Position numbers and translations under genes: made by a program | Part shown: piece after piece, positions 38,071 to 58,207 of the stretch | How positions within the stretch are numbered: position 1 is the first letter of the stretch | Layout of the letters: each line of letters opens with the position of its first letter | Sequence record: PV191315.1 | Source of the DNA: Escherichia phage vB_EcoM-P3322 | Strand: one strand, 5' to 3' | Length of the DNA stretch: 64,000 nucleotides | Notes under the pieces: generated by a model | Told to the model about the DNA's origin: nothing | The model's database searches: none | Seen by the model: only the letters and a program-made list of their open reading frames with translations

Positions 38071-38102
38071 TCTTATTGATTTATAAAGAGTTTTTATAAA
38101 AG

Positions 38103-38132: not shown

Positions 38133-38133
38133 A

Positions 38134-40809
38134 TTAGTCGTAATATTTCAAACCTGTAATGAACTTCGATCCCCAATCCGCACTTGCGGCGGTGAACGTC
38201 AACATCCAAGTTGTAGCTGTACCAGTGAAGACCTCTCGTTGCACAGTACCATCAGTGTGGTAAATGTCCACGCCAGTATGTCCATTCTTAGGAATAGTGA
38301 AGGTAACAGCACTGGTAGTGTCTCGTGCATAAGAACAAACAAATGGTGTCCCCGCCCAAACTGGATTTGTCATATCACCCATCTCAAGCTGTGGAACCCA
38401 AGCAATAAGACCTGCCGTACCATCTCCTGCGAAAGTGTCTGATCCACTTGCATTCAAAGCTATAATCTCATAGGTTATAGATGCTTGTTTGGCAACTGTC
38501 ACTTTGTGTAGAATTACACGATACCAACCATTCCCCATATCGATTATGTTTGCATCTGCACCTGTAAATGTTCCAGCTACAAGATCATAAGTCCCTTCGT
38601 TAATCTCATCTCCTGAAGTCAATTTGAGTTTCACTTTAGTGATCCCATCTGGCTTCAAGAATACGGATGCCGCCCAGTGCTTACCTGCTGTAATATCAGA
38701 AGCTGTATTCACTGCTGATAAAATATGTTGTCCTGAAGTTGTAGAAGGTGTTAACTTGTAAGTGTTAGCCGTAGTTCCAACCGGAGAGTTGATTGTTGAT
38801 GCTGTGACTGTCAAGTTCGTCTTCAACCACGGGGAAGCTGTTGTCAAGTTATTGTTGATAAAGATATGTGTACGGTTGGCTGCTACAACACGTCTACCTT
38901 GTGGAGTTGTACCAACATATTCTAAAGGTGCTACGGGAGCAGAACTCTCTGTAGGTACAAGGATATCTCCAGAAGCCCTGGCATAACGGTTACTCCTGTT
39001 GACCTTTACATCCGCCGGAATAGTTTCTTGCGTCAAATCATAATCCATCACAATCACCACAGCATTCACTGTGAGATAAGAACTATCTTCGGCAGTTACC
39101 ACACCTTGATAAGTTGCTCTACAACCGATACGACAACCTCCATCAGCAACCGCTGTAATAACGCCTGTAACAGGGTCAACTGTTGCTACCGTAGGGTCAT
39201 TAGAGAAATACTCAACAACCATACCAGGTAAGCTTGCTGCTCCTGTTGGCGTTATTTCTGCTACCATTGTTTGTGTTGTTCCTACATCCATCGCAGATAA
39301 GCTAGGGGTGTAAACACTCAATGTTGAAGCATATCCTCCAGAGGTATCTGATAAAGTTGTTCCTTCGGCGTTTAAGGCTGTCATACCTGCATCAAAACCA
39401 CCTTCTGCATGGAAAGTCATTAAACCAGTAGATGATATTGTCATGTTTGCAGGGGCAGAAGAAGTGTATTTAATATTGAAAAGTTTACCTCCTTCTGGGC
39501 TAACAGAATGTGTCAACTGTTTAGTTCCACCTACAATACAAATTCCTAAAGAATCTGTAGTTAAGCCAGTTGCCAGAATATCACCCGTAATCACGGAGCT
39601 TGCTATTGGTGTGAATTTATTATAGTTTAGACCGCTATTGAACAGATACGAGGCTTTCCCATCTTTCCAAATACCGGAATAATACATATCTCCATTATAA
39701 ACGAAAAAGGTTCCTTGATAACCTAATTGGTTAGTAACATCCATATTCAGCGTATGAACGCTTGTGAGCTTGTTTATATCCCAAGAACCAACTCCTTCAG
39801 GTTTAACTGGTTTTCCCACTTGGAGTGGATCTCCGCTCGCAGAATCATACCCCAAACCTAAGTTTGCAGTGTAGTTCTTACCAATAGCCCACAAGGAATT
39901 ATTGATCCCAACGAAAAAAGAGTGGCGGCTTGGTGGAAACTTCCATGTTGAGAAACCTGCTGCAAAGGTATCCAGTTTAGTGTAGGTTGTTTCTGTATTA
40001 GACCTAACATATAAGTAGTTTACTGTACCCGTGCCACCGGAGGTATCTCCTACAACTATTGTCTGGGAAACTGTATTGATGTAATCTTTGACATACACTG
40101 TTTCAGTAGCGGATATCTTAGCATTGACAAAAGCTGTTGTTGTGTTATTATTACCTGCTAAACCTTTACTAGCTCCACAAACACGCAAGGTTCCCACATT
40201 GTTGACATAAGAGCATTGGTTGTAACCTGCATCAAAAGCAACTGCTGCACTTGTTATCTGACGAGGAGTAGAAACTTCGTTAGTAGTACTTGCACCTAAA
40301 CTGCCTACTGTGTTTTGACCTGATCCATAAAGAACACCACTATTCATTAACCAGAGAGTGTTGTTATATCCTCCCTTAACCTCTTTAAGATTAGCTAAAG
40401 AGATAGTCCCTGTTATTACAGATGGAAAGCTGGTCCAAGTAGTTACACATGCGTCCGTACCACCTGCTGCTATAGATCCTACCAATCCTGCTGTCAATCC
40501 TGAATATTGCCATCCTCCACTGTTAGTTTTAATAACAAAACAACGATCTGCGGTAAACACATCCGCTACTACAGTAGAAGCCAAGTGGAAATTATTGAAT
40601 CGTGCACTACGAGTTCCATCTGCAATCTCACCAAAAAGGTTTGCGCCTTGAGTAAACAATCTACCATCATTAAGCAAAATTGCTAAACTGCTGTTAGAAT
40701 TACCAGCATTATCTGGGTAATCTAAAGTGATTACTTTTTTAACAATACCCGCTGGCAGAGGAACGACACCAGTGCTGGTCATAATAGTAAATATTGGAAT
40801 TGGAAACAT
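38134..40809 (-). CDS. tail fibre / receptor-binding protein (891 aa)
   Basis: Large Gly/Thr/Ser/Asn-rich beta-type protein at the distal end of the tail module; SD GGAGGG. Confidence 0.45.
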   Translation of the reverse strand: MFPIPIFTIMTSTGVVPLPAGIVKKVITLDYPDNAGNSNSSLAILLNDGRLFTQGANLFGEIADGTRSARFNNFHLASTVVADVFTADRCFVIKTNSGGWQYSGLTAGLVGSIAAGGTDACVTTWTSFPSVITGTISLANLKEVKGGYNNTLWLMNSGVLYGSGQNTVGSLGASTTNEVSTPRQITSAAVAFDAGYNQCSYVNNVGTLRVCGASKGLAGNNNTTTAFVNAKISATETVYVKDYINTVSQTIVVGDTSGGTGTVNYLYVRSNTETTYTKLDTFAAGFSTWKFPPSRHSFFVGINNSLWAIGKNYTANLGLGYDSASGDPLQVGKPVKPEGVGSWDINKLTSVHTLNMDVTNQLGYQGTFFVYNGDMYYSGIWKDGKASYLFNSGLNYNKFTPIASSVITGDILATGLTTDSLGICIVGGTKQLTHSVSPEGGKLFNIKYTSSAPANMTISSTGLMTFHAEGGFDAGMTALNAEGTTLSDTSGGYASTLSVYTPSLSAMDVGTTQTMVAEITPTGAASLPGMVVEYFSNDPTVATVDPVTGVITAVADGGCRIGCRATYQGVVTAEDSSYLTVNAVVIVMDYDLTQETIPADVKVNRSNRYARASGDILVPTESSAPVAPLEYVGTTPQGRRVVAANRTHIFINNNLTTASPWLKTNLTVTASTINSPVGTTANTYKLTPSTTSGQHILSAVNTASDITAGKHWAASVFLKPDGITKVKLKLTSGDEINEGTYDLVAGTFTGADANIIDMGNGWYRVILHKVTVAKQASITYEIIALNASGSDTFAGDGTAGLIAWVPQLEMGDMTNPVWAGTPFVCSYARDTTSAVTFTIPKNGHTGVDIYHTDGTVQREVFTGTATTWMLTFTAASADWGSKFITGLKYYD

Positions 40810-40820
40810 TTAAACCCTCC

Positions 40821-40849
40821 ATAAAAAGAAAGCCCCTTTCGGGGCTTCT
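40821..40849 (-). terminator. intercistronic terminator/attenuator (minus strand)
   Basis: On minus strand GAAGCCCCGAAAGGGGCTTTC hairpin followed by TTTTTAT, then RBS of next gene. Confidence 0.45.
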
Positions 40850-40850
40850 G

Positions 40851-42875
40851 TTATCGTGTTACAACAACCATGTCCACGATATCACCCACACCAGGATACG
40901 TTAATTGCAAAATTGTTACTGCGTTAGCAGTAGTTGCTATTTCTGTATCATTTAGTGCTCCATAAGACGCATCTAGTGTAACCGTGTGTCCCGTTGTATC
41001 TTGAATCAAATAAATCATTGCTGAAAACGCTTTAGGTTTTGTAGAGCCAGTGACACCAGGCCATGCTCCAACTGTCAGAGCGTCAGTTACTGTAACAACA
41101 TACATATTGGAAGTTCCAGGAGGAGTCCAAGATGCTCCAGAGTTGGCAGTAGTTGTTTCAAGTTCCATGAAACCTGCTGTAACTCTAGTTGGTGTTATAG
41201 CTTCCGTAGGATCTGATCCTGATATTTCGATCCAGTTTCCATCAGAACGACCATACGTCAAGCCGTCTTGAGGGGCTTCTGGTATACTAGGAAGAGTTCC
41301 TATAAGTGTCCACGTAGAAGAATCTGTTTTCTTAAACACTGCTCCAGTGGTAGTATTGAAGGCGTAATCATTGATAACACCGTCTCCTGCGACTGGATTA
41401 GTTGTTGCTACAAACCACTGTGCGCCGTCCTTACCGTTGGTCCCATCAGTACCGTTGGTTCCATTTGTTCCAGGATCACCCTTATCACCTTTGTCGCCCT
41501 TCTCACCTTTGTCACCTTTAATACTTCCCATGTCAACAAAAGATGCGGAATTGGTGTCTTGATCGTAAGTATAGATGTAAAGATTACTAGTGTCTTCAGT
41601 TAAGTAAGCATCACCATAGTTATTGTAAACAGGGAGAGCTTCACTGTTCGGAACATGACCTTTAGCTGTAATTGATGTTCCTCCAAGACTGCCAACATTC
41701 ATCCATTCCGTAGCATCTTGGACCCAAACATACAAATCATTATTAATTTTATATGCATCACCTACTTCTCCAGTCGGGGGAAGTTCAGCTTCGCTGTTCA
41801 GAACCCCGATAATCTCTAAGCCTGATCCTGTTGCACCAACTGGTCCTTGTGGACCTAATTCACCTTGTGGACCTTGCTCTCCTTGATCACCCTTGTCTCC
41901 TTTTGGACCTTTAAGCGAGGCAATGAAATCTACTTCTGTCCCTTCATTACCAGCATCCAGCCAACTTTGATATGCAGATTTCCCTTCATCTCCATCTGTT
42001 CCATCTAGACCGTCTTTACCTGCCTCACCTTGTGGACCTTGAGGACCAACAATATTACCCATGTTGACCCAAGCTGTCCCATTAGAGACATAAAGATTAC
42101 CATTGATAGAGTAAGCTTGGCTTACGTTTTCAGAGTTAGGTTGTGGTAAGTTACTTGTAGAAGGCAAATCCCCACGATAATCAAAACCGTTGGCGTTAAC
42201 ACCAGGTGCTCCCTGTGGCCCTGTAGGACCAACATCGCCTTTATCACCTTTTATAGAGGTAAGAAAATCATAAACAGACCCTGTATTACCATCTGCCAAC
42301 CATACCTCGTAAGCTGATTTACCTTCTGGCCCAAGAGAAGAAATAAGTTTCCAAACAGAACCATCCCAAGCGTAGATTACATCACCTACGATATAACCAT
42401 CCCCTGCAACGTTACCTGTAGATGGTAGTTCACTAGTGCTTGCTAATGATCCTTTAATATTAAGTTGAGCACCAGTATCCCCTTTCAAAGAAGCAAGCCA
42501 TTGTGCTTCTGTTCCAACAAAACCATTATCAAGTGCGATCTGATAAGCCGATTTACCAGCTTCAGGTATTGTTTCCGACAGATCATCAATCTGTTGCTGC
42601 ATTGCCGTAAACTTGGCATTGATAATTGCTATATCATCAGCGGTCCCAACACTTTGCCATGCAAGGGAAGAAATACCACCTGTGGTGGCTGGCGTAGAGT
42701 TTGCTGGAACTACTTTAGGAAAAGTTCCTTTCCATTGGTAATAATTCCCTTCTGCTGCTAACAGCAAAACTTCACGGGAATTACGTAATGTAAAACCTGC
42801 CTCAAAGCTGCGACGTTTTCGATAAGTAGCTTCTACCAGATCGGCTATCGCACTATTAGGTCTTGTTAAATTCAT
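40851..42875 (-). CDS. tail fibre protein with collagen-like Gly-X-Y repeats
   Basis: Four interrupted Gly-X-Y runs; a module GKSAY(Q/E)..L..G..G....(F/W)L.S(L/I)KG repeated three times, as in many phage side tail fibres. Confidence 0.55.
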   Translation of the reverse strand: MNLTRPNSAIADLVEATYRKRRSFEAGFTLRNSREVLLLAAEGNYYQWKGTFPKVVPANSTPATTGGISSLAWQSVGTADDIAIINAKFTAMQQQIDDLSETIPEAGKSAYQIALDNGFVGTEAQWLASLKGDTGAQLNIKGSLASTSELPSTGNVAGDGYIVGDVIYAWDGSVWKLISSLGPEGKSAYEVWLADGNTGSVYDFLTSIKGDKGDVGPTGPQGAPGVNANGFDYRGDLPSTSNLPQPNSENVSQAYSINGNLYVSNGTAWVNMGNIVGPQGPQGEAGKDGLDGTDGDEGKSAYQSWLDAGNEGTEVDFIASLKGPKGDKGDQGEQGPQGELGPQGPVGATGSGLEIIGVLNSEAELPPTGEVGDAYKINNDLYVWVQDATEWMNVGSLGGTSITAKGHVPNSEALPVYNNYGDAYLTEDTSNLYIYTYDQDTNSASFVDMGSIKGDKGEKGDKGDKGDPGTNGTNGTDGTNGKDGAQWFVATTNPVAGDGVINDYAFNTTTGAVFKKTDSSTWTLIGTLPSIPEAPQDGLTYGRSDGNWIEISGSDPTEAITPTRVTAGFMELETTTANSGASWTPPGTSNMYVVTVTDALTVGAWPGVTGSTKPKAFSAMIYLIQDTTGHTVTLDASYGALNDTEIATTANAVTILQLTYPGVGDIVDMVVVTR
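41427..42251 (-). repeat. collagen-like Gly-X-Y repeat-encoding segments within tail fibre gene
   Basis: Runs KGDKGDVGPTGPQGAPG, GPQGPQGEAGKDGLDGTDGDEG, GPKGDKGDQGEQGPQGELGPQGPVGATG, KGDKGEKGDKGDKGDPGTNGTNGTDGTNGKDG; opposite strand gives a Pro/Leu/Ser-rich pseudo-ORF. Confidence 0.6.
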
Positions 42876-42911
42876 TTATCTCTCCTATCATTAGACCATT
42901 CTATTGGAAGA

Positions 42912-42930
42912 AGAGGGGGAATCCCCCTCT
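42912..42930 (-). terminator. intercistronic hairpin (AGAGGGGGA / TCCCCCTCT)
   Basis: GC-rich inverted repeat between tailspike-like and collagen-like fibre genes; no clear U-tract. Confidence 0.3.
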
Positions 42931-42936
42931 ATTCCA

Positions 42937-45900
42937 TTAGGTTGTTGGCACATCTACTACTGGCGTTGGGCGAATAACCGCAGTATTACCTACAGAAACA
43001 TTACTGGAATCATTAGGTATGGTTTTAATTCTAACTCCAGCACTTGTAGGCGTTACAATTGGATCTGCAATGTCTATTTTAACTGGGTTAGTCCACGTAT
43101 CATTATCTTGATAAGGTGCACGAGTAATAACTGTGTCCAAATCTGCTCCACCTACGCCAGCACCAGGAATACGGATACGTGTCCCTGCTGACAGAGGGTA
43201 ATGATACAACCAAGAAGCATTTGTTGCTGTCCCGTTAGGAGTCAAGTTCTGTGTCAGGAAGGTATCTCCTGCCTGTGTAGCTCGAATACCGAAAGCTGGG
43301 ATATCTGGAATATATGCCCCACTTGTTGTTACAAGGAAGAACGTATTATCCGCCTTGACTATCATATCACCTTTGTCAAACTCTTTCCCTGTTGGGAAAT
43401 GCATTCCATCAATGTTTCGACTAGGATTAGGCTCTAAGTAATAAACTTTGCCCGTTGTCCCTACAATAGCTCCAATACCACCTGCGATATTGGTATACAT
43501 ATTAGCTTCAACATTACAGTTGACACGATGAATATCCGAGTAACGGCAACGGCTCCACTGTGGACGACCAGTAACCATCGTCTTGCCATCTGGGTAACAG
43601 TTTACGTTAACCATTTCAAGAACAGATTTTTCTCTACGGAAGAATCCATCATAAAATGTCCCTGGACCAGATTCAGGTTGACCAACACAATCGAAGATAT
43701 TACAGGTGATGTTAGACATTGAAAGCCAAGAAGCTATACCGAACAACTGCAATGCAGCGCAACGAATATTTTCAAAGCTAACTCTGTTTTCATAACCTGG
43801 CCCAGCGGAAACTCCCGCAAAAACACGCCCAGTTTTGGTGTGAATGTTACGAACAGAATAGTTAAAGCATGGGTTTGAAGGTCTACCCTGTGCCGGAACT
43901 ACCGGATTACCCTCTTCGTCCAGAACTGCGTTAGTTCCCCACTCCAAATAAATCATACGGATATTACTTGCAAGTGTGCTACCGTCTGTTTTAGGCTCTC
44001 CGTAAACACCGTCAATCGTAAAATCTTTACTTCCATACATTACAACTGCGCCAGTTGCCAAACCTGTCCCAACAGATACGGTTTGATCTGGATCGCCATG
44101 AATGTTTTCGATAGAGATATTACGACCAACTTCTACGTGGACAATCTGACGACAACGTTTTGCAAAAACGTTACGAATTGTAATATTCTTGCAATATTGA
44201 TCATCAGGGATTCCGTAACCATATGGTCCTTTACCAGCTACACCGATACCGATACCCCAGTTGGACAGAGGAATAGGAGCGTTAGTCCCATCGATATTAG
44301 ACAGGTAAATATTCTCAATCACACAACCATCGTCATAATGTTTATTGATGACGTTCAGTTCTATTGCATCACCTTGCATGTCCATGAAGGTAAGGTTACG
44401 GAAGACACCACGTGTTACTGGTTCCCCTGTTCCTTGTTGAAGGATGCCATACAACCCGTTTTTAAAAGTACAGTTATCAATTTCAAAAGTACCTGATATT
44501 GGGTTGCCTTGGAATACCAAGCTACCAACTTGACCTGGGCGAGGAGCACCGTCCCACAAACAATCGAACATGCGCACAGCACCACCCCAATACATAACAC
44601 GAGAGTTACGGAAAGTTGTGCCTTCTACTGTAGCATTCTGCACACGATAGTCGCGTTGACCACGGAACACACCACCACGCAAAGTGATATCTTGAATATC
44701 AAAAGAGCTTGTCGTGAAAGTCATATCGCAACCATAAGCATCGAGAATCTTGCTTTTCGAAGCTTTTGCTGCTAACAGTGCCGCTTGGAAAGCTGCTTCT
44801 GGTGTGGTATATGTTGTTGTGTTGTTAGCAAATTCTGATAAGTAGACAACATCGAATAAATCGTTGTATGTTCCACCACGAGGGGTTAACAGTCCTTCTG
44901 TATTGGTCAGAACCCATGCATTTGGACCTAATCCACCGCTTGTCTCCAATGTATCGGAGGCCAAAATACTTTTTGGTAAACTTCCAGCCCAACGATAACG
45001 ACCAGCACCACGCCCAATCGTCTGATTTTTAGCTGTCAGAGTTACGTTATTACCAAAGCTTGTAGGCAAATGAACAAACTGTCCACGTTCAACAGCTAGT
45101 GCAGAAAGATCTACAGACCCCCCAGAATAAGTCATTACTCCAGAAACAGACAAGGATGTTAAAGTTCCTGTGATGTTAGGAGGTAATGTGTAGGAAGACT
45201 GTGCTACTGGATCATACAGAGCTTTAATCCCTGTTAACGATTGACCTGCTGTTGCGTAAGCCACCTCATCATCTAACAAACCATATTTACGAGCAATAGT
45301 TTGCAGAGGGACTTTATCCATGCTTTCTGTTAGTTCTTCCGTTTTTGTTTCTAAACTAACAAGACGGTTCTCTAGATTAGGATCTGTATCTGCTGAAGCT
45401 ACGATTTTACCAATATAAGCAAAAAGCTTGTTTGGCAGTCCTGTTGCAGGATCGTGTCCCAAAGGTTCAGATAAGATGATCTTACTATCTTCTATACGGA
45501 AAGCTTCCCCCAGAACCTGAATAACACCATTGATCGTAACAATAGCACTATCAAAGATGTAAGGAGGACTAATTACTGTTTCATAACCAGTTGCACCAGA
45601 ATATACCCAAGGGGTGACTTCTGTTGCCAATTGTTCTGTCTTCAGTCCCCACAATACCCAGTTGTTATCTCCTACTGGAGTCCCTTGCATAGGGATAGGG
45701 TTAACCAATGTAGCGTTAGGAGCATAGTAATAACCGCTCAATACTCCATTCTGGAAATAACGAAGTTGGTTAAAAACCGTTTCATTTGTGCCTTGCGCCC
45801 AATCCAATGGGCTTTTAAAGAAAAAGTTATCAACAAGGGCTTTTCTCAGGGTTGGTATCAACCCTGATTCTGTTTCAATACTCTCTGTAGCACTTCCATT

Positions 45901-45990
45901 AATAACGTCATGGAGTTGGTTAGATGAGAAAATAACCAGGTCTACGCCCTGTTCGAGAGACGTTGCTGGATATGTTGGGAATGTTGCCAT
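42937..45990 (-). CDS. large tailspike-like protein (1017 aa)
   Basis: Very long beta-rich protein with many N-x-T/S and Gly-rich turns; possible depolymerase, enzymatic motif not confirmed. Confidence 0.45.
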   Translation of the reverse strand: MATFPTYPATSLEQGVDLVIFSSNQLHDVINGSATESIETESGLIPTLRKALVDNFFFKSPLDWAQGTNETVFNQLRYFQNGVLSGYYYAPNATLVNPIPMQGTPVGDNNWVLWGLKTEQLATEVTPWVYSGATGYETVISPPYIFDSAIVTINGVIQVLGEAFRIEDSKIILSEPLGHDPATGLPNKLFAYIGKIVASADTDPNLENRLVSLETKTEELTESMDKVPLQTIARKYGLLDDEVAYATAGQSLTGIKALYDPVAQSSYTLPPNITGTLTSLSVSGVMTYSGGSVDLSALAVERGQFVHLPTSFGNNVTLTAKNQTIGRGAGRYRWAGSLPKSILASDTLETSGGLGPNAWVLTNTEGLLTPRGGTYNDLFDVVYLSEFANNTTTYTTPEAAFQAALLAAKASKSKILDAYGCDMTFTTSSFDIQDITLRGGVFRGQRDYRVQNATVEGTTFRNSRVMYWGGAVRMFDCLWDGAPRPGQVGSLVFQGNPISGTFEIDNCTFKNGLYGILQQGTGEPVTRGVFRNLTFMDMQGDAIELNVINKHYDDGCVIENIYLSNIDGTNAPIPLSNWGIGIGVAGKGPYGYGIPDDQYCKNITIRNVFAKRCRQIVHVEVGRNISIENIHGDPDQTVSVGTGLATGAVVMYGSKDFTIDGVYGEPKTDGSTLASNIRMIYLEWGTNAVLDEEGNPVVPAQGRPSNPCFNYSVRNIHTKTGRVFAGVSAGPGYENRVSFENIRCAALQLFGIASWLSMSNITCNIFDCVGQPESGPGTFYDGFFRREKSVLEMVNVNCYPDGKTMVTGRPQWSRCRYSDIHRVNCNVEANMYTNIAGGIGAIVGTTGKVYYLEPNPSRNIDGMHFPTGKEFDKGDMIVKADNTFFLVTTSGAYIPDIPAFGIRATQAGDTFLTQNLTPNGTATNASWLYHYPLSAGTRIRIPGAGVGGADLDTVITRAPYQDNDTWTNPVKIDIADPIVTPTSAGVRIKTIPNDSSNVSVGNTAVIRPTPVVDVPTT

Positions 45991-45993
45991 TAA

Positions 45994-46329
45994 TTACCCC
46001 TTATTCTGTGTACGTTTAACTATGTCATCTAGCATCATTTGGATAGTCGCATTCTTGAGGTCCATAATCTTTTCAATTTTTTGCTCAAGGGTGTTGTTAT
46101 TTGCCATTAATGTAGAGTTAATTTGATTTAGCATCTGGGTAAGTTCGGCTTTAGTTGCGTAAGTTGATTCAACAAAGACCAACTTCTTCTCTAGCTCTCG
46201 ACTTTTCTCCTCCATTTCCTCAAGATCAGAGCCGAATTTATCCATTTTTTGTTTGAAAAAGAACCAGATGACTCCGATTAAAGGGATTATTGCATCCTTT
46301 GCAAGTCCCCATGCTTCTTGAAATTCCAT
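45994..46329 (-). CDS. small protein with N-terminal TM helix and coiled coil
   Basis: Track ORF 111 aa; IIPLIGVIWFFF then heptad-rich charged region. Confidence 0.45.
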   Translation of the reverse strand: MEFQEAWGLAKDAIIPLIGVIWFFFKQKMDKFGSDLEEMEEKSRELEKKLVFVESTYATKAELTQMLNQINSTLMANNNTLEQKIEKIMDLKNATIQMMLDDIVKRTQNKG

Positions 46330-46338
46330 AATGATCCC

Positions 46339-47946: not shown

Positions 47947-47955
47947 TTAAACTCC

Positions 47956-48585: not shown

Positions 48586-48587
48586 TT

Positions 48588-50075: not shown

Positions 50076-50317
50076 TAGTCATCCTCTTTGGTAGATTGTG
50101 ATCTGCCCCAACGTAAATCAATAAGATTTTTCATGAGGCGAGAAGGGGTTATCATGAAAACAAAAGCCCAACCCATCCATTCAGGAATTTCTTTTTCTAT
50201 TCCTAAAAAGATAAACATGCCTGTCATAACCGACATGCCTACAGCGTTCCAGACTTTCGTAGAACTGACTTTATTATCAGGATATGTACAGAACATACCT
50301 ATTAAAAATTTTCTCAT
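50075..50317 (-). CDS. small membrane protein (2 predicted TM), holin-like topology
   Basis: 80 aa; hydrophobic segments MSVMTGMFIFLGI and WMGWAFVFMI; charged C-terminus. Confidence 0.4.
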   Translation of the reverse strand: MRKFLIGMFCTYPDNKVSSTKVWNAVGMSVMTGMFIFLGIEKEIPEWMGWAFVFMITPSRLMKNLIDLRWGRSQSTKEDD

Positions 50318-50622
50318 AGTGCGTTCTCATTACTTTTTAAATCACGATATACAGCTAATTCCCCAAGGTCTACAAAACCCGCTGAATGCACAAGTACAGC
50401 AGCACTAAGACTAATGGCAGTAGTACCTGGGGCAATATCAGCAGGTAGGGAATACGCCCTTTGCGTCTCCTTATCATAGATAACCTTATACCCACCCAAA
50501 TCCACACCTACTGAGAAGTAAACAACCTCAGATTGTTTAACTCCAAAGTGACGGGCTACTGCTTGTTTATTGGTTAAGATTCCGGTTGAACCTTTACCAC
50601 CTTGGGAGAACATTTCGTTCAT
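50314..50622 (-). CDS. hypothetical protein
   Basis: Track ORF 102 aa; SD AAGAGG; preceded by leader hairpin. Confidence 0.5.
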   Translation of the reverse strand: MNEMFSQGGKGSTGILTNKQAVARHFGVKQSEVVYFSVGVDLGGYKVIYDKETQRAYSLPADIAPGTTAISLSAAVLVHSAGFVDLGELAVYRDLKSNENAL

Positions 50623-50644
50623 AACAACCTCTTTGTTTTTCTAA

Positions 50645-50670
50645 GTAAGCCCCTCCAAAGAGGGGCTTAC
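50645..50670 (-). promoter_or_regulatory. 5' leader stem-loop (11-bp stem) just upstream of RBS of 50314..50622
   Basis: GTAAGCCCCTC-CAAA-GAGGGGCTTAC inverted repeat; no U-tract; same position relative to RBS as the TerC leader hairpin. Confidence 0.3.
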
Positions 50671-50849
50671 AGTGGTAGTGACAACACTTTGAGTTAGTAC
50701 GATAGTAACTAAAGACAAGATTAACCCTGCTACGATATGTTTTCATCATTTTATCACATGGCGATGATATGCGCTTGCAGGACATAGCTTGTGTGGATTG
50801 TGCTGAATGCAATTTTGGCCTATTGTCATCAGTAAGAAAGCATTCATTC

Positions 50850-50873
50850 CCCCGCCGAAGCGGGGTTTTTGTT
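50850..50873 (-). terminator. hairpin terminator after 50872..53160 (A-tract/hairpin/T-tract, possibly bidirectional)
   Basis: CCCCGC-CGAA-GCGGGG stem; T5 on plus side, A-run on the other; related stem at 62283-62298. Confidence 0.4.
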
Positions 50874-53160
50874 ATATAACTGAAGTAACAACACCATTGA
50901 TTGTTGCTTTTATCTGTGCAGTTGGATGAGGTCTAACATTAATGGTGCCTCTATTACTTGATGCCCCAATAAATACATCATACCCTGAAGTTGCGTTGAA
51001 ATCCGAGAACAGGCTAACCGGGCTTGCATTCTGAGTGGCAGGCACAGCAGATGAGGTTCCACAACGCTTCAGGATACCTGGTGTTGCTAAGGATGATGCA
51101 GCATCGCGACGGCAAGTAACGTCAAGATCAAATGTGTATCCATCAAATCCGTATTGTGTTGAATCCTGATAAAGTTTCATTACTTCTACTGTTGAACCTC
51201 CGGCAGAAGAGTTATGGTTGAGTCCTGTGAACTTCATTCTGGTAAATCGATTGTCCTGCACAACTGTATCGAATGTCTTTTCAATTTTAAGACTGCTTAA
51301 ACCGTATACACCGTTCAGAAGTATAGGGTTCTGGACACGCGTACTCATGCTTATATCAATAGTCGGCGCGTTATACAGGTCAATCCTGTCACCAATGGAA
51401 CCTGAACGATCTTTGATATTTACGGCAATAGAAAATGTAGCATCATTATTATCAATTTTTATTGTCGATCTCTTATCTACCTCTATTGTCATAGATGGAG
51501 ATGACTCTGCTACTGAAGTTCCTGTTATTGTCAAAGAACGTGGATATTTAGTTACATATATTTTTGCTTCTTCGCTATAGTTTCCCGCCACAAAGGTTGC
51601 CTGGCTGTCTCCTATGCGTATTTCACCAGTTTCAACAGTTGCAGCAATGACAGACGTTCCAATAATCGGAACCTCTACTTTAGTTCCGGAAGGGAAATCA
51701 GATGTCATTGCTCGATCAAGAGTAATGACGTTTCCCGATATTGCTGTAATTCTTCGAGTCTCAACACCGCCAGTCGAGTTTGTAAAAGCAATCTCAAACC
51801 AGGTATCAAAACCAGAGGCATCTGCAACAGTAACAGTGTTGTCATTGATAGATGCTGGCGATGTCAGTGTGGTGCTCATACCCTCAATAGACAAAGTACA
51901 TTGGGCTTTGTCACTACTACCAATGTAACCCATCAACTTGATGGAGTTATTACGAACTCGAACACCGTACTTAGTTCTGGTGGAGCCGTTTTTTGTTCCC
52001 TGTGAGTGTCCATACCAATACATAACAAGATGTAAAAGATCGTAGTTGCTGATACGGTGATCAATTGATTTATTACGAACAGTAGCATAAGGCGCAGTAT
52101 AGATAGCTCTGGCTGCTGCGCTGGCACCATTATTAGAAATGTTTCCATTTACGGTGAAACCTTCAACTGTTTGGTGCCAGTGGAGACGATCTCTGCTCCT
52201 GTCACGCGGATCAATTCCGACATGGTGCAGTGAAATGTCAGATGACGTTGACATGATTATTGTTGCGTCATTTCCGGCACCGGAAAAAGTAAATCCTCGA
52301 CGATCAACATCAAGGTTGATTGTATTTGATAGATAGCTTCCGGAAGGGAATGATAACTTAGATATTATACTGTTAGCCCTTGCAACCCTGTTTGCTTCAT
52401 CTATAGCAACTGAGTTTTCATCTGCGTCTGCACCGCCAAAACCAAATTCATCATACCCCATGCTCTCTCTTACAATTAAGTTGGCATTAAACCCGCCCGC
52501 TATTGGGATTGAGTATGTATCATCATTTTGTGTTGTTGATATTAACCATTCTGACTCAGATCTTATTCCATGTTTGTTTTTATATGTTTTTACAATCATC
52601 CCTTCGCTGAATGTGGCACCATCCCCTGATGGCAGAATTCCAGATATTAACTCTGAAACGCTATTAAATATTATAGTTGTGTTTTTATTAACCCACAATC
52701 TCAAAGAAGCATCGCCAACACTAACCCACGCACTAGGACCAACGCCACCAGTTGATGTAGGGGTTGATTTAGGTGGTACATCTTTAGGGAAACCAGACCC
52801 CCATGTGTAGCACTGAGCACCCGCTATGTACCAGACAGCATCAGTTACACTGCCCACTGTAGCCCCTTCTTCAAAACTACCATCAACAAGAGTTAACCCA
52901 GCCTCGGCAAGACTACGACGCCACTGTTCACGATCATTAAGAAGATTGTTATTCAACTCTTCCTGAACAGTATTACCATTTGAAGATTGTATGAAATCTG
53001 CTCCATCTGTATCTTTCAACTGGGTGGCTAAAACCACCCCAGTGTCAGTAAGAAAGTTGGAAACTGTGCTTTTAACAGTCTTATCAGGTTGGTCTAAAAC
53101 CAGGTAATCAGAATCATTAACTTTTGATGTTTCGGGTAAATTAGTAATTGTAGTTGACAT
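50872..53160 (-). CDS. tail fibre/tailspike-like protein (762 aa)
   Basis: Large beta-rich Ser/Thr/Asn/Gly-rich protein in the tail module. Confidence 0.4.
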   Translation of the reverse strand: MSTTITNLPETSKVNDSDYLVLDQPDKTVKSTVSNFLTDTGVVLATQLKDTDGADFIQSSNGNTVQEELNNNLLNDREQWRRSLAEAGLTLVDGSFEEGATVGSVTDAVWYIAGAQCYTWGSGFPKDVPPKSTPTSTGGVGPSAWVSVGDASLRLWVNKNTTIIFNSVSELISGILPSGDGATFSEGMIVKTYKNKHGIRSESEWLISTTQNDDTYSIPIAGGFNANLIVRESMGYDEFGFGGADADENSVAIDEANRVARANSIISKLSFPSGSYLSNTINLDVDRRGFTFSGAGNDATIIMSTSSDISLHHVGIDPRDRSRDRLHWHQTVEGFTVNGNISNNGASAAARAIYTAPYATVRNKSIDHRISNYDLLHLVMYWYGHSQGTKNGSTRTKYGVRVRNNSIKLMGYIGSSDKAQCTLSIEGMSTTLTSPASINDNTVTVADASGFDTWFEIAFTNSTGGVETRRITAISGNVITLDRAMTSDFPSGTKVEVPIIGTSVIAATVETGEIRIGDSQATFVAGNYSEEAKIYVTKYPRSLTITGTSVAESSPSMTIEVDKRSTIKIDNNDATFSIAVNIKDRSGSIGDRIDLYNAPTIDISMSTRVQNPILLNGVYGLSSLKIEKTFDTVVQDNRFTRMKFTGLNHNSSAGGSTVEVMKLYQDSTQYGFDGYTFDLDVTCRRDAASSLATPGILKRCGTSSAVPATQNASPVSLFSDFNATSGYDVFIGASSNRGTINVRPHPTAQIKATINGVVTSVI

Positions 53161-53168
53161 TTTTACTC

Positions 53169-55322
53169 CTATATATAAAATTTTTGTGTTGTTACTAAAT
53201 CTTCTCCAGATTTAGTAGCTAATGTAATTCCACTTATGGTAGCAATCTCAACATTTGCTTGTTTAAGAGTGATATCTTGCAAATAACAATTCAAAGGCAC
53301 ATTACCCATATAGAAAACTTGGGATTGAGAATTAACTACCGTGATGGAATCATGCATTATTTGAGGATAGGCCCATATATATTGTGTAAGCCCATTGAAC
53401 TTATTGGCGTTCAACACTATATTACCTATAATCATTTTCCAAAGATACGTGCGGTAGTTTGATTCAGGATCGAAGCCATACAAAGGTGCAAGAGTAGCAT
53501 CTGGAACAAAACCCGAAAGATAGTGAATATCAGAATATTCAAAACCTAATTTTTCATGTGGTATGGTAATTGCATCGAATGCTTTCATCATTTTACCTTC
53601 CAGAAGCCAGTCGTAACACTCTGAACAGTAAAAATCAAAAGTTTCAGGAATGTAGTAATCAGACGGAAAGTTAACTTTCTCCATCAAACCGTTGCCAATA
53701 ATTGACGGTAAGAACGGAAGCAATGTTACTTTAGCTCCTGGATAAGTTGCTCTAGTGTCTGTTGCAAACTTTGTAACTCTTAATCCTAGTTTACGAGACA
53801 AAAATGCATAGTATTCGTCAAACGGTGTTCCTGTTTTATAATTATCTATTGTTCCTGCATCTTGTGCAAATAAGCCTGTTTCTGTATTGAATGCTAGTTT
53901 GGTAGTGTAATCATATATACAAGGCATTTTACTTGCTGTATTATACCACCACCAAGGTTCACCAATTTGAATGACGACTGGAATATTGTTAGTTTGAGAA
54001 ATAGATGCTATTTTGTTAATAACATTTTGCAAATATTCCATACCTTCATCAATAGTTGGAGACAACACGTAACTAGGAGGCTTATACCCTGTTGCTGCAA
54101 GAGCATCGTTCCAATCATGCTGGACCCATTCAACAGGACAAACTGTGCTCATCAACTCAAAACTCAAAGAGTTCATTATTGTGTAGCCATTTTCATTAGC
54201 TATAGAATGGAAACTGTTAAGCCAAGCTTCTGTAGCCGGATTCAGGAAAACAGATCTATTTAAAGCCCAAGATGTTCCGTTCCATGAGAACTCATAATAG
54301 TGAGACATTCCGTTGTAATGGTTAATCATTCCACGATAACCTAGTGCATATGTATTATAAATAACTCTCTCTGGAGTCAGGTTATACATATCATCATAAG
54401 ATGTGCACATGCGAATATCATGTTCAGGCTGGACAAGGTTGCTGACTTTCATCATACTGTAACCAGAAGTAGGTTCAAGAAGAGTGAAAGTAAACCAAGC
54501 CTCTTGACTGGCAATAGGTACAATCTCTTCTATTTCTTCATACCTTGCTGTAATCAAAGAGAAGAAAATATTATCTACAGCATTCATATCCAAAGGAATA
54601 TCATTATTAGGGCCAGAAAAGATATTACCAAAATCTAACTTTATTGTGGCTGTTTTACCATCTTCTGAAATATCTGAAGCGTAGAATCCTAAACTGACAT
54701 AATGAACACTTTTATCCAGGAGAGTTACAGTCAAAGTCGGCACCAAAGGTTCTTCTTTAAAACCTGGCATGTTTTGACTAATTTCCATTTTAAACCAAAG
54801 TTTCTCTGAACTTAAATCTGTGTGAGGCAAATACCCAACACCTTTATGGTCATATTTGTCAACTGTGCTCCAGATAACCCCTGCCAAACCTGCTGTTGTT
54901 CTGTTTACAAATCTTGCAGTAAAAGAGTCTCCATGAGATACAATAGAACAACTTTCCGTTGCTTGAGAATCTATTGTCCAATACATAGGAGAGAACATTT
55001 TAACGTCTTTTGTAGTCCAAGTTATTGGAGTAGTGTTTTCTTGGATAGTAGTTATAATACAATTGATGGTTGTTTCAACCATCATGTTATTTTGACTAAT
55101 CCCTGAAACTTGGAGGGAGAAGTTAAGATCTATTGAGTTCTTTGGTCGTTCAAATACTTCAACCACAATAGTAGCAGAATCAGCATCATCAGGGAACACA
55201 AGTGTTCCCGATTTTGCAATATAATCTCTACCAGCGACTGCTGTTCCGTCAACAGTCGTGTAGTTAAATGAACTCGCATTTACTCTCTTGTCTCGCGTGA
55301 CAGTAAATATAGCTTGTTTCAT
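53169..55322 (-). CDS. large virion structural protein (717 aa)
   Basis: Track ORF with strong coding continuity in structural operon; no motif recognised. Confidence 0.45.
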   Translation of the reverse strand: MKQAIFTVTRDKRVNASSFNYTTVDGTAVAGRDYIAKSGTLVFPDDADSATIVVEVFERPKNSIDLNFSLQVSGISQNNMMVETTINCIITTIQENTTPITWTTKDVKMFSPMYWTIDSQATESCSIVSHGDSFTARFVNRTTAGLAGVIWSTVDKYDHKGVGYLPHTDLSSEKLWFKMEISQNMPGFKEEPLVPTLTVTLLDKSVHYVSLGFYASDISEDGKTATIKLDFGNIFSGPNNDIPLDMNAVDNIFFSLITARYEEIEEIVPIASQEAWFTFTLLEPTSGYSMMKVSNLVQPEHDIRMCTSYDDMYNLTPERVIYNTYALGYRGMINHYNGMSHYYEFSWNGTSWALNRSVFLNPATEAWLNSFHSIANENGYTIMNSLSFELMSTVCPVEWVQHDWNDALAATGYKPPSYVLSPTIDEGMEYLQNVINKIASISQTNNIPVVIQIGEPWWWYNTASKMPCIYDYTTKLAFNTETGLFAQDAGTIDNYKTGTPFDEYYAFLSRKLGLRVTKFATDTRATYPGAKVTLLPFLPSIIGNGLMEKVNFPSDYYIPETFDFYCSECYDWLLEGKMMKAFDAITIPHEKLGFEYSDIHYLSGFVPDATLAPLYGFDPESNYRTYLWKMIIGNIVLNANKFNGLTQYIWAYPQIMHDSITVVNSQSQVFYMGNVPLNCYLQDITLKQANVEIATISGITLATKSGEDLVTTQKFYI

Positions 55323-55330
55323 TTTACCCC

Positions 55331-58207
55331 TTACTCGGTAACGTCCACACTAATGTTTGCCATTGTCAAAACAGTAAGTGCAGGAATATTGCTCGAATCC
55401 AAAACAGGTAATGCATTTTGGGGATTAAGTTTTTTGTATAAAGCATACAACCCAAAACCACGTAACAACTCTCCGGCGTGGAAGCCAAAGAAGACTCCGT
55501 TATCACTGTCTGGTCTAGGGGCAGCACTCCAACAACCATTCATAACGTGATTAGGACCAAGAACAATATAATTTTCCTGAATAAGTTCAAAACAGCGATC
55601 TGCTACTATTTTAATGTTAGGAATTTCTGAATCATATCCAGCCATCCCCATTATAGCACATCCCGCCATAAAGAGCGCAGACATGTGACTTGTAAAGTCA
55701 TCTACAGGCGCAGCCACTTCTCCGTTGGGATAAAATATTGTTGGTGTTCTTCCTTCGTTGTTATCTTGGAACCACTTCAGATAATTGATCCAGTTTTTAC
55801 AAACTGTTAAAAGTTTTGCAGGAACTTCTGCTCCTCGTTGCTTCAGTTCGTATACTGTATGACACGCACAGAAGAATGCTCGTGCTTCATAACCATCCCA
55901 AGCTTTATCGTTCCAATGATACATTGTGAACTCATTCTTGTTTCCGTATTTATGAGCATCCCAACGATCCCAAACATAAGCTTGTGCCATTGGCCCAGGC
56001 ATCACAGGGGCAAACTTATTATAAAACCACATTTGTGAATCATATAAAAAGTCTATACTGTTGTTCATACGAACCCAATCAATATCTCTCCCTTTAAAAC
56101 AATATAAGGATGGGTATTGATAACCTGGGTAAGGAATACCACGCCAACCGTCATATAAGGCTGTGTTAGGATCACTGATATTGGAAAATGGAATGATTCC
56201 TGGAGTATAATTCAAACTGTTAAGTTTGTAGTCCAGTATTGTACAATCTCCAAGTTTTGCTGTATAAGGATTTTCAGATGAAACTGTAACCCTGAAATAC
56301 ATTGTGTAATCATCACCAGTGGCTGAAGAATACAAAGATGGGATATCGTTAACGCAATAAAAATCGATTGCCCCTGTCAAGCCATTTGCAGGTTCAGAAT
56401 CCAATGCAATATTGATCTGATCAACAGCAGTCAGGTTTATTGACGAAGGTTTTGCCTCTGTGTCTTCGTGATTAGGTTGCCAAGTACTTAATTTGAAATC
56501 GGCAGGACTTAAAGCTTTAGTAACCCATGCAGAATTTGTTTTTTCTAACATGGCCCACCATCTCCAACCTGCGGAATCCGTAATAGTGATGTTAAAATCA
56601 TCTGCGTATGAACGATACGTAATAGATTTTAAATTGGCTGTTTTAGTTGGTGTTAACCAAAACCCAACAGTAAAACCACCATCTGAATCCATATTAGCAG
56701 AAACTATCTGATCACTATTTGTCCCAGCAATACCAGTTGCATATTTATATTGTATCACAGTATTGCTTCCCCAGTCAACAATAATTCTGGGTTCAGCAAT
56801 AATATATACACCACCTCCAGGAGGTTCGGTGCGCATAAAACTAGATAAAGGTATATCCATCTTAGTCATATTAGCTGCACCAAGAGGTAAGCCACAACGA
56901 TATGTCACTGTGTCTGTTTCACTCTTAGTTTTGCTTAATTCTAGCTCTGGACGGAAAAGAACACCTTCCCCTGCATCATCTACACCTTGAAACTCAATAC
57001 GCAGTTTTGAATTCTGATCTACTCTGAACCAAACTGCCTGTTGTTCTAGAGTTGTTTGTGCTGCAACATCTTGGCGAATTACTGTGTATCCTAACTCGTC
57101 ACGAGAATATTTAGGTATTGCTGTAGATGGGTATGAGTAATCATACGAGATACCATCTGTAAAAGGAATTATTGCTGTCGTAGATCTACGGAAGAATTTA
57201 TCAAACATATCGATGTTTGAGTAGTCTTGACACAACAATAAAGAAGATTGCCAGCAAAGCCAGTATTTTCTCTCTCCTGTGATTTGATACATCAAGTAGT
57301 TTGCATCACACCACCACGTTTCAGCATCGGAAGCATTATCTTGATAGCCTAACTCTACCGGAACGTTTACAGGACGGTTATGCCACATCTCATTACGCTT
57401 AAGCAGATATCCACCGTGTTCTACAGGATTGCATGTAGCGTAGTTGAATTTATAGTCCCCGTTCACAGAAGCATTTTTAAGTTGCACTGTTCCATATTCT
57501 GCAAAGCTATGACCAGTAGATAAAATGTTACCATCCCAATCAACTTTACGTCCTAGACGGTCTATAATCCATTCAACGTCCCACTGATCTCCATATTCTT
57601 TCCAGTTGGTTGAACCATCTGGGTTAGTTGCATAAACTGTTGCGTTAACGGAGTTCCAACCAAGATTGCCATTGAAAGCAAACCAAGCTTTATCTAAGTA
57701 TTCCCCCCAATGCGGTGCACCTTTAGGAATAACAGTCCTTCCGTTAATCCAAGTCATCATGCTACCTTTGAACCCGCCGTGCGTAGGATACCCATCATCT
57801 GTGAGAGGGTAATGTGCTAAACGTGGTTCTTTACCATTGATGATCCAATTGGGACGATATTTAGCTGGAGGATCAGGAATAGGTTGGCCCCCGAAGAAGT
57901 GATCTATATAGGCTTGCCAATACTTCTCGGCAGATTCAAGATATTTTTTATCCCCTGTAGCCAAATATGCATAAGCAAAACCAGTGATAAGCACAGATTG
58001 ACCTTCGGTAGTAGCGTCACCGTTTGGTTGCCCTTCCTGCGCTGTCCAGTTAATAAAGTGTCTGTTGTTCGCCAATACGTTTTGTGGGTTGATAATGTAA
58101 TGCTGAACCGTAGGATCTATGGTAAGCCCAGTATTTCTTTCCAAAAACTGAACCAACCCTTCAATCAACTGAAACGTGTTGTCAATATTGTGCTTAACTC
58201 TTGACAT
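55331..58207 (-). CDS. large virion structural protein (958 aa), aromatic-rich, possible carbohydrate-active domain
   Basis: Trp/Tyr/Asn-rich composition typical of glycan-binding or glycosidase-like tail proteins; unverified. Confidence 0.45.
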   Translation of the reverse strand: MSRVKHNIDNTFQLIEGLVQFLERNTGLTIDPTVQHYIINPQNVLANNRHFINWTAQEGQPNGDATTEGQSVLITGFAYAYLATGDKKYLESAEKYWQAYIDHFFGGQPIPDPPAKYRPNWIINGKEPRLAHYPLTDDGYPTHGGFKGSMMTWINGRTVIPKGAPHWGEYLDKAWFAFNGNLGWNSVNATVYATNPDGSTNWKEYGDQWDVEWIIDRLGRKVDWDGNILSTGHSFAEYGTVQLKNASVNGDYKFNYATCNPVEHGGYLLKRNEMWHNRPVNVPVELGYQDNASDAETWWCDANYLMYQITGERKYWLCWQSSLLLCQDYSNIDMFDKFFRRSTTAIIPFTDGISYDYSYPSTAIPKYSRDELGYTVIRQDVAAQTTLEQQAVWFRVDQNSKLRIEFQGVDDAGEGVLFRPELELSKTKSETDTVTYRCGLPLGAANMTKMDIPLSSFMRTEPPGGGVYIIAEPRIIVDWGSNTVIQYKYATGIAGTNSDQIVSANMDSDGGFTVGFWLTPTKTANLKSITYRSYADDFNITITDSAGWRWWAMLEKTNSAWVTKALSPADFKLSTWQPNHEDTEAKPSSINLTAVDQINIALDSEPANGLTGAIDFYCVNDIPSLYSSATGDDYTMYFRVTVSSENPYTAKLGDCTILDYKLNSLNYTPGIIPFSNISDPNTALYDGWRGIPYPGYQYPSLYCFKGRDIDWVRMNNSIDFLYDSQMWFYNKFAPVMPGPMAQAYVWDRWDAHKYGNKNEFTMYHWNDKAWDGYEARAFFCACHTVYELKQRGAEVPAKLLTVCKNWINYLKWFQDNNEGRTPTIFYPNGEVAAPVDDFTSHMSALFMAGCAIMGMAGYDSEIPNIKIVADRCFELIQENYIVLGPNHVMNGCWSAAPRPDSDNGVFFGFHAGELLRGFGLYALYKKLNPQNALPVLDSSNIPALTVLTMANISVDVTE

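Follow-up and report, generated by a model that had tools for sequence, protein, structure and literature searches.

In phage phi92, receptor binding was ascribed to five proteins (gp141, gp142, gp143, gp150 and gp151) that belong to a "multivalent adsorption apparatus" (Schwarzer et al. 2012, PMC3457257, as relayed by later papers), and a later paper relates that the phi92 authors classed gp141 and gp142 as glycosidases. In a 2026 cryo-electron microscopy (cryo-EM) study of phi92 (PMC13450770), three sets of fibers are visible: gp147 was assigned to fiber III, gp143 was placed at the tip of fiber I, fiber II is joined to fiber I at the latter's base, and fibers I and III are bound separately to the wedge protein. 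The BASEL study reported that the phAPEC8, phi92 and rV5 groups characteristically encode three sets of lateral fibers, a "Swiss army knife" of nano size, and that in Vequintavirinae the locus is mostly conserved, with few allelic genes. Here, we analyzed 64,000 nucleotides of Escherichia phage vB_EcoM-P3322 (sequence record PV191315.1; hereafter, the window) and, in particular, a module of 20,074 bp on its minus strand (positions 38,134-58,207). We conclude with high confidence that this region, from a Phapecoctavirus, is the module for the baseplate periphery and for receptor binding and that it encodes a phi92-type multivalent adsorption apparatus.

Over its full 20,074 bp, including the variable spike, the region has a nucleotide identity of 98.4-98.5% to Escherichia phage vB_EcoM-Ro121c4YLVW (Phapecoctavirus, Stephanstirmvirinae, RefSeq), and at least 80% of it is covered by 51 phage records. 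Outside the variable cassette, phAPEC8 has 98.2-98.3% nucleotide identity to the window. The order of genes is identical in phi92, PaulScherrer and phAPEC8, and phi92 gp135 through gp151 are one-to-one orthologs of the window genes with 60-87% amino acid identity (BLASTP), the exceptions being the spike in the gp143 slot (first 54 amino acids [aa] only), gp150 (split into parts of 75% and 33%) and gp148 (position and domain only). Because every large open reading frame (ORF) has a match among the PHROG tail families (E between 1e-23 and 0) and all of them are annotated coding sequences in the 98.5%-identical RefSeq genome of Ro121c4YLVW, we regard these ORFs as real genes and not chance occurrences. 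A 2025 paper has named several of the Phapecoctavirus genes: TfpL (the 958-aa protein of the window), TfpM1 (891 aa), TfpS1 (353 aa), TfpS3 (157 aa) and TfpM2, which has 681 aa there and corresponds to the 674-aa gene here. Proteomics of rV5, a relative, detected many tail proteins in virions. Since the phi92, BASEL and 2025 descriptions concern the same genes, our finding is a rediscovery of a published system, already known from phi92, phAPEC8, rV5 and PVP-SE1, and the allele set of the window is likewise already present in GenBank, in Ro121c4YLVW.

A P2/Mu-like wedge (a gpJ-like protein of 495 aa and a gpI-like protein of 209 aa) is flanked by two blocks of genes for peripheral proteins. 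The upstream block encodes proteins of 157, 958 and 717 aa and a hypervariable spike of 762 aa, and the downstream block encodes a pair of 353 and 181 aa and proteins of 1017, 674 and 891 aa. As in the phi92-type apparatus, at least five co-encoded proteins have distinct receptor-binding or glycan-active domains; the set consists of a colanidase-like beta-helix, an O-antigen spike module, a triosephosphate isomerase (TIM) barrel, an (alpha/alpha)6 fold, a collagen-like fiber, a short fiber, and a propeller with a knob.

A sequence-only reading of the window had described the proteins of 891, 674, 1017, 353, 762, 717 and 958 aa as fiber- or tailspike-like, and the ORF map reproduces their lengths and outer coordinates exactly, with ATG starts on the minus strand; ORFs of 111, 181, 209, 495, 80 and 102 aa are interspersed among the seven. 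The label is apt for four of them: the 762- and 1017-aa proteins are tailspikes, the 674-aa protein is a collagen-like fiber, as had been proposed, and the 353-aa protein is a short fiber. It does not suit the 958-, 717- and 891-aa proteins, which have an (alpha/alpha)6 fold, a Calx-beta domain with a TIM barrel, and an RCC1-like propeller with immunoglobulin (Ig)-like domains and a knob, respectively. None of these is a beta-helix, and the beta-helix/depolymerase fold proposed as a check was found in the 1017-aa protein. Similarly, the claimed Asn/Ser/Thr/Gly-rich composition applies to five of the seven proteins (N+S+T+G of 37-39% in the 891-, 674-, 353- and 762-aa proteins and 32% in the 1017-aa protein), but not to the 717- and 958-aa proteins, in which these residues make up 27-29% and aromatic residues 13-14%, giving them the look of globular enzymes. 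Because the 958-, 717- and 891-aa proteins all carry glycan-enzyme or binding folds, the locus does not reduce to baseplate wedge proteins. The candidate fiber chaperone was recovered as the 181-aa ORF, and the presence of several receptor-binding or glycan-degrading proteins per virion, together with a chaperone, is supported by orthology to phi92.

We examined the variation of the locus by segment-wise tblastn of the window proteins against six Phapecoctavirus genomes and PaulScherrer. Within the genus, the 958-, 717-, 1017-, 495- and 209-aa proteins are 94-100% conserved, and so is the 674-aa fiber, except for a collagen-repeat segment of 75% identity in tuntematon. Variation among the six Phapecoctavirus genomes is confined to three modules: residues 153-762 of the 762-aa spike, the C-terminus of the 891-aa protein (missing from tuntematon and 62-74% identical in ZCKP1), and the 353-aa fiber's C-terminal third with its chaperone. 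In tuntematon (locus L009), the latter two change together, and the chaperone is only 24% identical, which is consistent with an exchange of short-fiber tip and chaperone as a pair, as far as sequences can tell. This pattern of conserved and allelic genes matches the BASEL observation for Vequintavirinae.

The 762-aa tailspike (50872-53160, minus strand; Tail_spike_N, E = 8e-15) occupies the hypervariable slot at the position of phi92 gp143. Like the phi92 protein, it is an exchangeable distal spike on a conserved anchor: an N-terminal anchor of residues 1-54 (extending to 1-154) is followed by a TD2 domain (residues ~91-157) and a receptor-binding module (residues ~92-762). Residues 1-54 are 94% identical to gp143 (BLASTP) and residues 1-154 are 83-97% identical in other Stephanstirmvirinae. 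Among the genomes compared, residues ~155-762 are common only to Ro121c4YLVW, whose variable spike has 98.8% aa identity to the 762-aa protein, and homology to phAPEC8 is lost exactly over positions 50313-52999. The module (residues 92-762, 671 aa) is 71% identical to tailspike protein 4 (TSP4) of Agtrevirus AV101, which recognizes and degrades the O159 O-antigen and produces translucent zones on O159 strains, and 67-72% identical to spikes of Kuttervirus, Agtrevirus and the 39.7-kb phage ST31. Judged by these comparisons, the module is horizontally acquired, and we infer from the 71% identity to AV101 TSP4 that the 762-aa protein is a tailspike depolymerase of the right-handed beta-helix type. 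The recombination joint lies at residue ~92, which is the start of TD2, and TD2 itself appears from the alignments to be that joint. Residues 154-762 have no match in Pfam or the Protein Data Bank (PDB). As Ro121c4YLVW was isolated on Shiga toxin-producing Escherichia coli O121, we considered O121 as the target of the spike and rejected it as unsupported, because the coverage of the region by Ro121lw, which likewise comes from a host of type O121, is only 85%, the same as that by phAPEC8, which lacks the cassette. A paper on tailspike modularity (PMC10408124) does not mention Ro121, O121, ST31 or Phapecoctavirus and gives no specificity for the 762-aa module.

Downstream of the spike gene, a 102-aa ORF (50314-50622, minus strand; phrog_7992 positions 327-420, E = 3.9e-61) encodes only a TD1 ("head-binding" or docking) domain of the Ackermannviridae type. 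Its identity is 42% to the 1017-aa protein (residues 230-302), 65% to the TD1 of AV101 TSP3 and TSP4, and ~90% to the N-terminal ends of complete spikes from Kuttervirus and ~72-kb phages. The ORF has a good ribosome-binding site and a 4-nucleotide overlap with the next gene. Such a small TD1 ORF is kept in several Stephanstirmvirinae (PaulScherrer, tuntematon, TSP7_1 and ZCKP1) and is absent in phAPEC8 and phi92, whose slot carries an endosialidase-type spike. The 102-aa protein may be what is left of a gene, or it may function at a docking site as a plug or adaptor. Between this ORF and the 762-aa spike gene, on the 3′ side of the latter and at the cassette boundary, lies a non-coding spacer of 249 nucleotides (50623-50871, minus strand) that contains two GC-rich hairpins (CCCCGC-TTCG-GCGGGG and GTAAGCCCCTC-TTTG-GAGGGGCTTAC) and the ribosome-binding site of the ORF that follows. 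The spacer falls inside the interval in which phAPEC8 homology is lost, and a hairpin at 50850-50865 scored as terminator-like, with its T-run on the plus strand.

The second tailspike, of 1017 aa (42937-45990, minus strand; Tail_spike_N, E = 2.4e-9; phrog_6117, E = 6.8e-283), is the counterpart of phi92 gp150. It is composed of a conserved N-terminal anchor (residues 1-215), TD1 (230-302), TD2 (302-361) and a beta-helix of the depolymerase type, related to the gp150 colanidase, and its residues 426-1000 align end to end with the crystal structure of gp150 (6e0v, E = 1.5e-78). The anchor is 75% identical to that of gp150 and the helix 33% (BLASTP), and the TD1+TD2 insert, at residues ~216-454, is not present in gp150. 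The label "colanic acid degradation" on this spike is a transferred annotation. The adjacent 674-aa collagen-like tail fiber (40851-42875, minus strand; Tail_spike_N, E = 1.3e-19; Collagen, E = 3.9e-12) is 60% identical to phi92 gp151. It has an N-terminal TD2, four G-X-Y runs (6, 8, 10 and 11 triplets) and a C-terminal knob, and its C-terminus matches the solved tail fiber 9cuy_g.

The short tail fiber, of 353 aa and Mu/P2 type (46885-47946, minus strand; phrog_4465, E = 3.8e-107), is 74% identical to phi92 gp147 over residues 1-267. In phi92, gp147 was fitted into the density of fiber III, which reorients upon contraction (PMC13450770). The next gene encodes the 181-aa tail fiber assembly chaperone (46339-46884, minus strand; Caudo_TAP, E = 2e-12; phrog_136, E = 8.8e-41). 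It has no BLASTP match to gp148 at E ≤ 1e-5 and was assigned to it by gene position and the Caudo_TAP domain. No invertible segment and no alternative C-termini were seen in the ORF map at the short-fiber locus. Upstream are the genes of the wedge, namely those of the 209-aa gpI-like protein (47956-48585, minus strand; phi92 gp146, 87%; phrog_4056, E = 6.8e-81) and the 495-aa gpJ-like protein (48588-50075, minus strand; phi92 gp145, 80%; Baseplate_J, E = 4e-8). In phi92, gp145 is modeled in the wedge.

The other end of the module encodes three proteins that are not fibrous. The first is a small tail protein of 157 aa (58207-58680, minus strand; phi92 gp140, 83%; phrog_9017, E = 2.7e-68), a candidate adaptor for the second, a lateral tail protein of 958 aa (55331-58207, minus strand; phi92 gp141, 83%). 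The 157-aa ORF was also considered as an extra fiber, following its annotation as a "tail fiber protein," and was rejected as such; it looks like an adaptor. The AlphaFold2 model of the 958-aa protein (predicted local distance difference test [pLDDT] score of 87.4) shows a split (alpha/alpha)6 toroid of the six-hairpin glycosidase type with beta-sandwich inserts. Modeled in this way, the protein has a glycosidase fold similar to those of glycoside hydrolase (GH) families GH8, GH76, GH88 and GH105 and is neither a fiber nor a spike. At the sequence level it matches no GH family. The third protein, of 717 aa (53169-55322, minus strand; phi92 gp142, 76%), combines a Calx-beta domain (residues 4-82; E = 9e-11), NCTSP_N (residues 107-292; PF23844, E = 2e-16) and a TIM barrel similar to that of N4 gp64 (residues 299-658; NCTSP TIM barrel, PF23845, E = 2.2e-78). 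The two NCTSP scores, 264.1 and 60.2 bits, are well above the Pfam cut-offs of 27, and in the PDB the protein matches N4 gp64 (9lc0_M, E = 2.3e-30) and N4 gp65 (E = 1.5e-12). We regard it as a putative glycan deacetylase or binder. The BASEL authors described a conserved N4 gp64-like "deacetylase" fiber on the basis of a Phyre2 prediction, and rV5- and phi92-like phages share the dependence of N4 on wecB and nfrB, which are NGR glycan genes.

Combinations of these three genes also occur beyond the relatives of phi92. The C-terminal ~90 aa of the 157-aa protein are homologous to a protein encoded directly upstream of 958-like genes in all five unrelated phage or prophage contexts, which are a Pseudomonas P2/HP1-like prophage, an SU10-like contig, Stenotrophomonas phage Philippe, a prophage-like region of marine origin that encodes a tape-measure protein of 1713 aa, and a fifth phage contig. 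By tail type, two of these are P2-type/siphophage-type, two are SU10-type podophage, and one is an unclassified contig. The P2-like prophage (L011) carries a fusion of the 958-like module with gpI, a baseplate protein. In the SU10-like metagenomic contig (locus L010, 6691-11364), a 1557-aa protein, P0098, joins a 958-like module (residues 1-960) to a 717-like part (residues 968-1552), the latter being 51% identical to residues 108-689 of the 717-aa protein; an assembly or frameshift artifact is possible. As a link of the Rosetta-stone type, P0098 suggests, at the level of sequence, that the products of the 958- and 717-aa genes make one assembly. Given the 958/717-type fusion in P0098, the fusion to gpI and the conserved 157/958 pair, we therefore argue for a single portable unit. 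We tentatively hypothesize that the 157-, 958- and 717-aa proteins form a non-fibrous "glycan-processing arm" common to the tails of myophages, siphophages and podophages, and that this arm could fill the density of the fiber I arm and/or of fiber II in phi92. Fiber II was described as "short, thick, rigid" (PMC13450770), and the same study screened only fiber-shaped models and never mentions gp141 or gp142.

Several of these observations would also fit a purely structural role, in which the 958- and 717-aa proteins are a scaffold (an arm carrying the distal spike) made of catalytically dead relics, and the virion has fewer receptor specificities than the gene count implies. Both proteins are 97-100% invariant in the genus and 65-90% identical to those of Justusliebigvirus, as structural parts would be; N4 gp64 has been described as a sheath subunit; the phi92 fiber I has been described as an arm-like scaffold with an enzyme at its tip; and the direct fusion to gpI would suit a scaffold as well. 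However, eight acidic residues (D63, D171, D293, E295, D335, E387, D749 and E912) are invariant in 36 homologs of the 958-aa type with 43-83% identity, which would suit an active or sugar-binding site, relatives with a gp64-like protein depend on wecB and nfrB, and, as far as the later paper relates it, gp141 and gp142 were taken for glycosidases by those who described them. We consider the scaffold possible but on the doubtful side.

The 891-aa protein (38134-40809, minus strand; Pfam RCC1 and Big_2) consists of an RCC1-like propeller of the seven-blade type (residues ~1-400), two Big_2 Ig domains (~410-585), a poorly modeled linker and a C-terminal beta-sandwich knob (~660-891). Its AlphaFold2 model (pLDDT of 77.8) resembles UVR8 and RCC1 (Foldseek, E = 2e-15, TMt 0.70). 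Among relatives, the protein is conserved over its N-terminal two-thirds and allelic in the C-terminal third. At the corresponding position (locus L013, 21321-22983), phi92 encodes gp152, of 202 aa and 62% identical to the Ig domains only, and gp153, of 295 aa. The PaulScherrer counterpart, of 939 aa, shares the Ig domains and the knob (~60-67%) and not the propeller. Because gp152 and the PaulScherrer protein share only parts with the 891-aa protein, the locus is mosaic across the subfamily, and the statement of one paper that "TfpM1 is absent in Justusliebigvirus" holds only in part.

The C-terminus of the 891-aa protein matches the head-spike fiber of the gene transfer agent RcGTA (Rcc01080; 6tb9, E = 5.7e-14), and this match raises the possibility that the protein is a head or neck decoration fiber for loose, reversible adherence to the surface and lies outside the tail apparatus. 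The Big_2 Ig-like domains also match phrog_215 of the head-and-packaging category, a terminator-like hairpin precedes the gene, which is the last of the operon, and phi92 has just the short gp152 and gp153 at that place. Yet the protein is encoded in the tail module and its best PHROG is a "tail protein" (E = 0), the knob domain also occurs in "minor tail proteins" of siphophages and the tail fiber of RcapMu, the conserved N-terminus and variable C-terminus follow the pattern of tail receptor-binding proteins, and the PaulScherrer counterpart is annotated as a lateral tail fiber. A position on the head is, in our judgment, unlikely, and we retain the 891-aa protein among the receptor-binding proteins of the tail.

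The sequence-only reading had further proposed that the apparatus is branched and recognizes several surface polysaccharides. The 674-, 762- and 1017-aa proteins contain TD2 (Pfam Tail_spike_N), TD1 occurs in the 1017-aa protein (residues 230-302) and the 102-aa ORF, and in Ackermannviridae (CBA120, AV101), with which the window shares these domains, TD1 docks on the Gp10-like XD3. No Gp10-like XD domain was detected in residues 1-230 of the 1017-aa protein or residues 1-95 of the 762-aa protein (Pfam, E ≤ 1). The only trace in a phmmer comparison with AV101 TSP2 and TSP4 is a weak match of TSP4 residues 265-321, upstream of TD1, to residues 126-177 of the 1017-aa protein (independent E-value of 0.22). 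Branching in P3322 is therefore inferred only from the attachment of phi92 fiber II to fiber I at the base of the latter and from the TD1/TD2 homology, and the arrangement in phi92 itself is some branching and not a single stalk. An Ackermannviridae-style complex, with one anchor spike bearing Gp10-like XD domains, the others docked on it through TD1, and one stalk per baseplate vertex, could draw on the distribution of TD1 and TD2, on the docking of TD1 on XD3 and on the TSP4 alignment, but it is very improbable: that alignment reaches an E-value of only 0.22, residues 1-230 of the 1017-aa protein contain no Pfam family at E ≤ 1, TSP4-like PHROG profiles align only from residue ~207 of that protein onward, the 762- and 674-aa proteins are without TD1, and the phi92 fibers I and III are attached separately to the wedge protein. 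In addition, the four tandem tailspike genes beside a T4-like wedge that mark Ackermannviridae are not seen here, as the spike and fiber genes are split into two blocks by the P2/Mu-like gpJ/gpI genes. For the proposed recognition of several polysaccharides, the basis is homology alone, with colanic acid, an O-antigen and the NGR glycan as candidates. The earlier interpretation was thus largely right and over-generalized in the terms "fiber/spike" and "branched."

Some considerations weigh against the phi92-type apparatus as we describe it. For virion location, stoichiometry and enzyme activity, the assignments all come from relatives, and the joint display of all fiber sets on one virion, known for phi92 from cryo-EM, is here predicted from the genes. 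The phi92 cryo-EM study left fiber II and the arm of fiber I without protein assignment (PMC13450770), and either the 958- or the 717-aa protein could be a mere binding or scaffold protein. As to substrates, dependence on NGR is known from Vequintavirinae and phi92-like phages and not from a Phapecoctavirus, the helix of the 1017-aa spike is only 33% identical to the phi92 colanidase, which leaves its substrate uncertain, and 71% identity to AV101 TSP4 does not fix the O-antigen specificity of the 762-aa spike.

The established part of the picture comprises which genes are present, their domain folds, their orthology to phi92 proteins placed by cryo-EM, and the cassette boundaries. Building on it, we propose that the conserved enzymes (958, 717, 1017 and 674 aa) would engage or degrade widely shared glycans, such as the NGR glycan, colanic acid and others, and that the exchangeable modules (the C-terminus of the 762-aa spike, the knob of the 891-aa protein and the tip of the 353-aa fiber) would set strain specificity. 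Degradation of the glycans would bring the baseplate to the outer membrane, where the short fiber would bind the core of lipopolysaccharide irreversibly and reorient, leading to wedge expansion and sheath contraction, as modeled for phi92 fiber III. Host range would then evolve through exchange of cassettes at TD2 or anchor junctions with the spikes of Ackermannviridae, podophages and prophages.

The remaining features concern the ends of the operon and its small proteins. A terminator-like hairpin with an 11-bp stem and a T-run (38103-38130, minus strand) ends the tail operon, and another, with an 8-bp stem and a T-run (40829-40848, minus strand), lies between the 674- and 891-aa genes; phAPEC8 annotates a terminator at both places. 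Of the terminator-like sites found (18, versus 13.1 ± 3.5 expected, a marginal enrichment), we used only these two, which coincide with the phAPEC8 annotations. A scan for sigma-70-like promoters was uninformative (45 sites found versus 52.5 ± 6.6 expected). Transcription is convergent at 38070-38134, where the plus-strand replication genes stop at 38070 and the minus-strand tail operon at 38134, and the sign of the GC skew flips at ~38 kb. The 80-aa protein (50075-50317, minus strand; phi92 gp144, 81%; phrog_1322, E = 1.8e-27) is small and hydrophobic, with a hydrophobic stretch. The 111-aa protein (45994-46329, minus strand; phi92 gp149, 76%) is annotated as a "lipoprotein" in RefSeq and PHROGs and its N-terminal segment is hydrophobic and the rest is charged and coiled-coil-like; because it has no cysteine, it cannot be lipid-modified. 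Outside the module, a 233-aa ORF (61478-62179, minus strand; phi92 gp135, 72%; PF21821, E = 9.4e-27) was considered as an extra fiber, since it is called a "tail fiber protein" in relatives and TfpS2 in one paper. We rejected it: it is a Dit-like tail tube initiator, and gp135 was modeled as the tube initiator of phi92.

Because one virion can get through capsules, colanic acid and O-antigen, phages with several receptor-binding proteins that degrade glycans are of interest for therapy and for finding enzymes. The window adds nothing new to the picture of multi-depolymerase phages. However, by separating conserved parts (958, 717, 1017 and 674 aa) from exchangeable ones (the C-terminus of the 762-aa spike, the knob of the 891-aa protein, and the tip of the 353-aa fiber together with the chaperone), the map points to sites at which host range could be re-engineered, and the orthologs of the 157-, 958- and 717-aa proteins provide a concrete hypothesis for the density left without assignment in the phi92 cryo-EM.

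Compared with Ackermannviridae, the window shares TD1, TD2 and a spike module of 71% identity to AV101 TSP4, but its baseplate is P2/Mu-like and not T4-like, its spikes are not in a four-gene tandem cluster, and Gp10-like XD domains were not detected in the proteins searched. Similar to the gp64-gp65 sheath of N4, it encodes NCTSP_N and an NCTSP TIM barrel, in a 717-aa protein that matches gp64 and part of gp65; unlike in N4, this homolog would sit on the baseplate of a contractile tail, with a Calx-beta domain in front, and it is paired with an (alpha/alpha)6 protein and not with a gp65-like sheath subunit of 10 domains. The 353-aa fiber gene followed by a Caudo_TAP chaperone gene, directly 3′ of gpJ/gpI-like wedge genes, is the arrangement of Mu GpS/GpU and P2 gpH/gpG, and the BASEL authors relate this type of locus to Mu GpS/GpU; the fiber is shorter than P2 gpH. 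The window differs from phAPEC8 at 50313-52999, where the latter has a 921-aa endosialidase-type spike and no 102-aa ORF. Finally, the window genes follow the order of phi92 gp140 through gp151 gene for gene, with three differences: the variable slot holds a 762-aa O-antigen-type spike and a 102-aa TD1 ORF where phi92 has the endosialidase gp143, a TD1+TD2 insert is found in the 1017-aa spike, whose helix is only 33% identical to that of gp150, and the 891-aa propeller protein is without a full phi92 counterpart.

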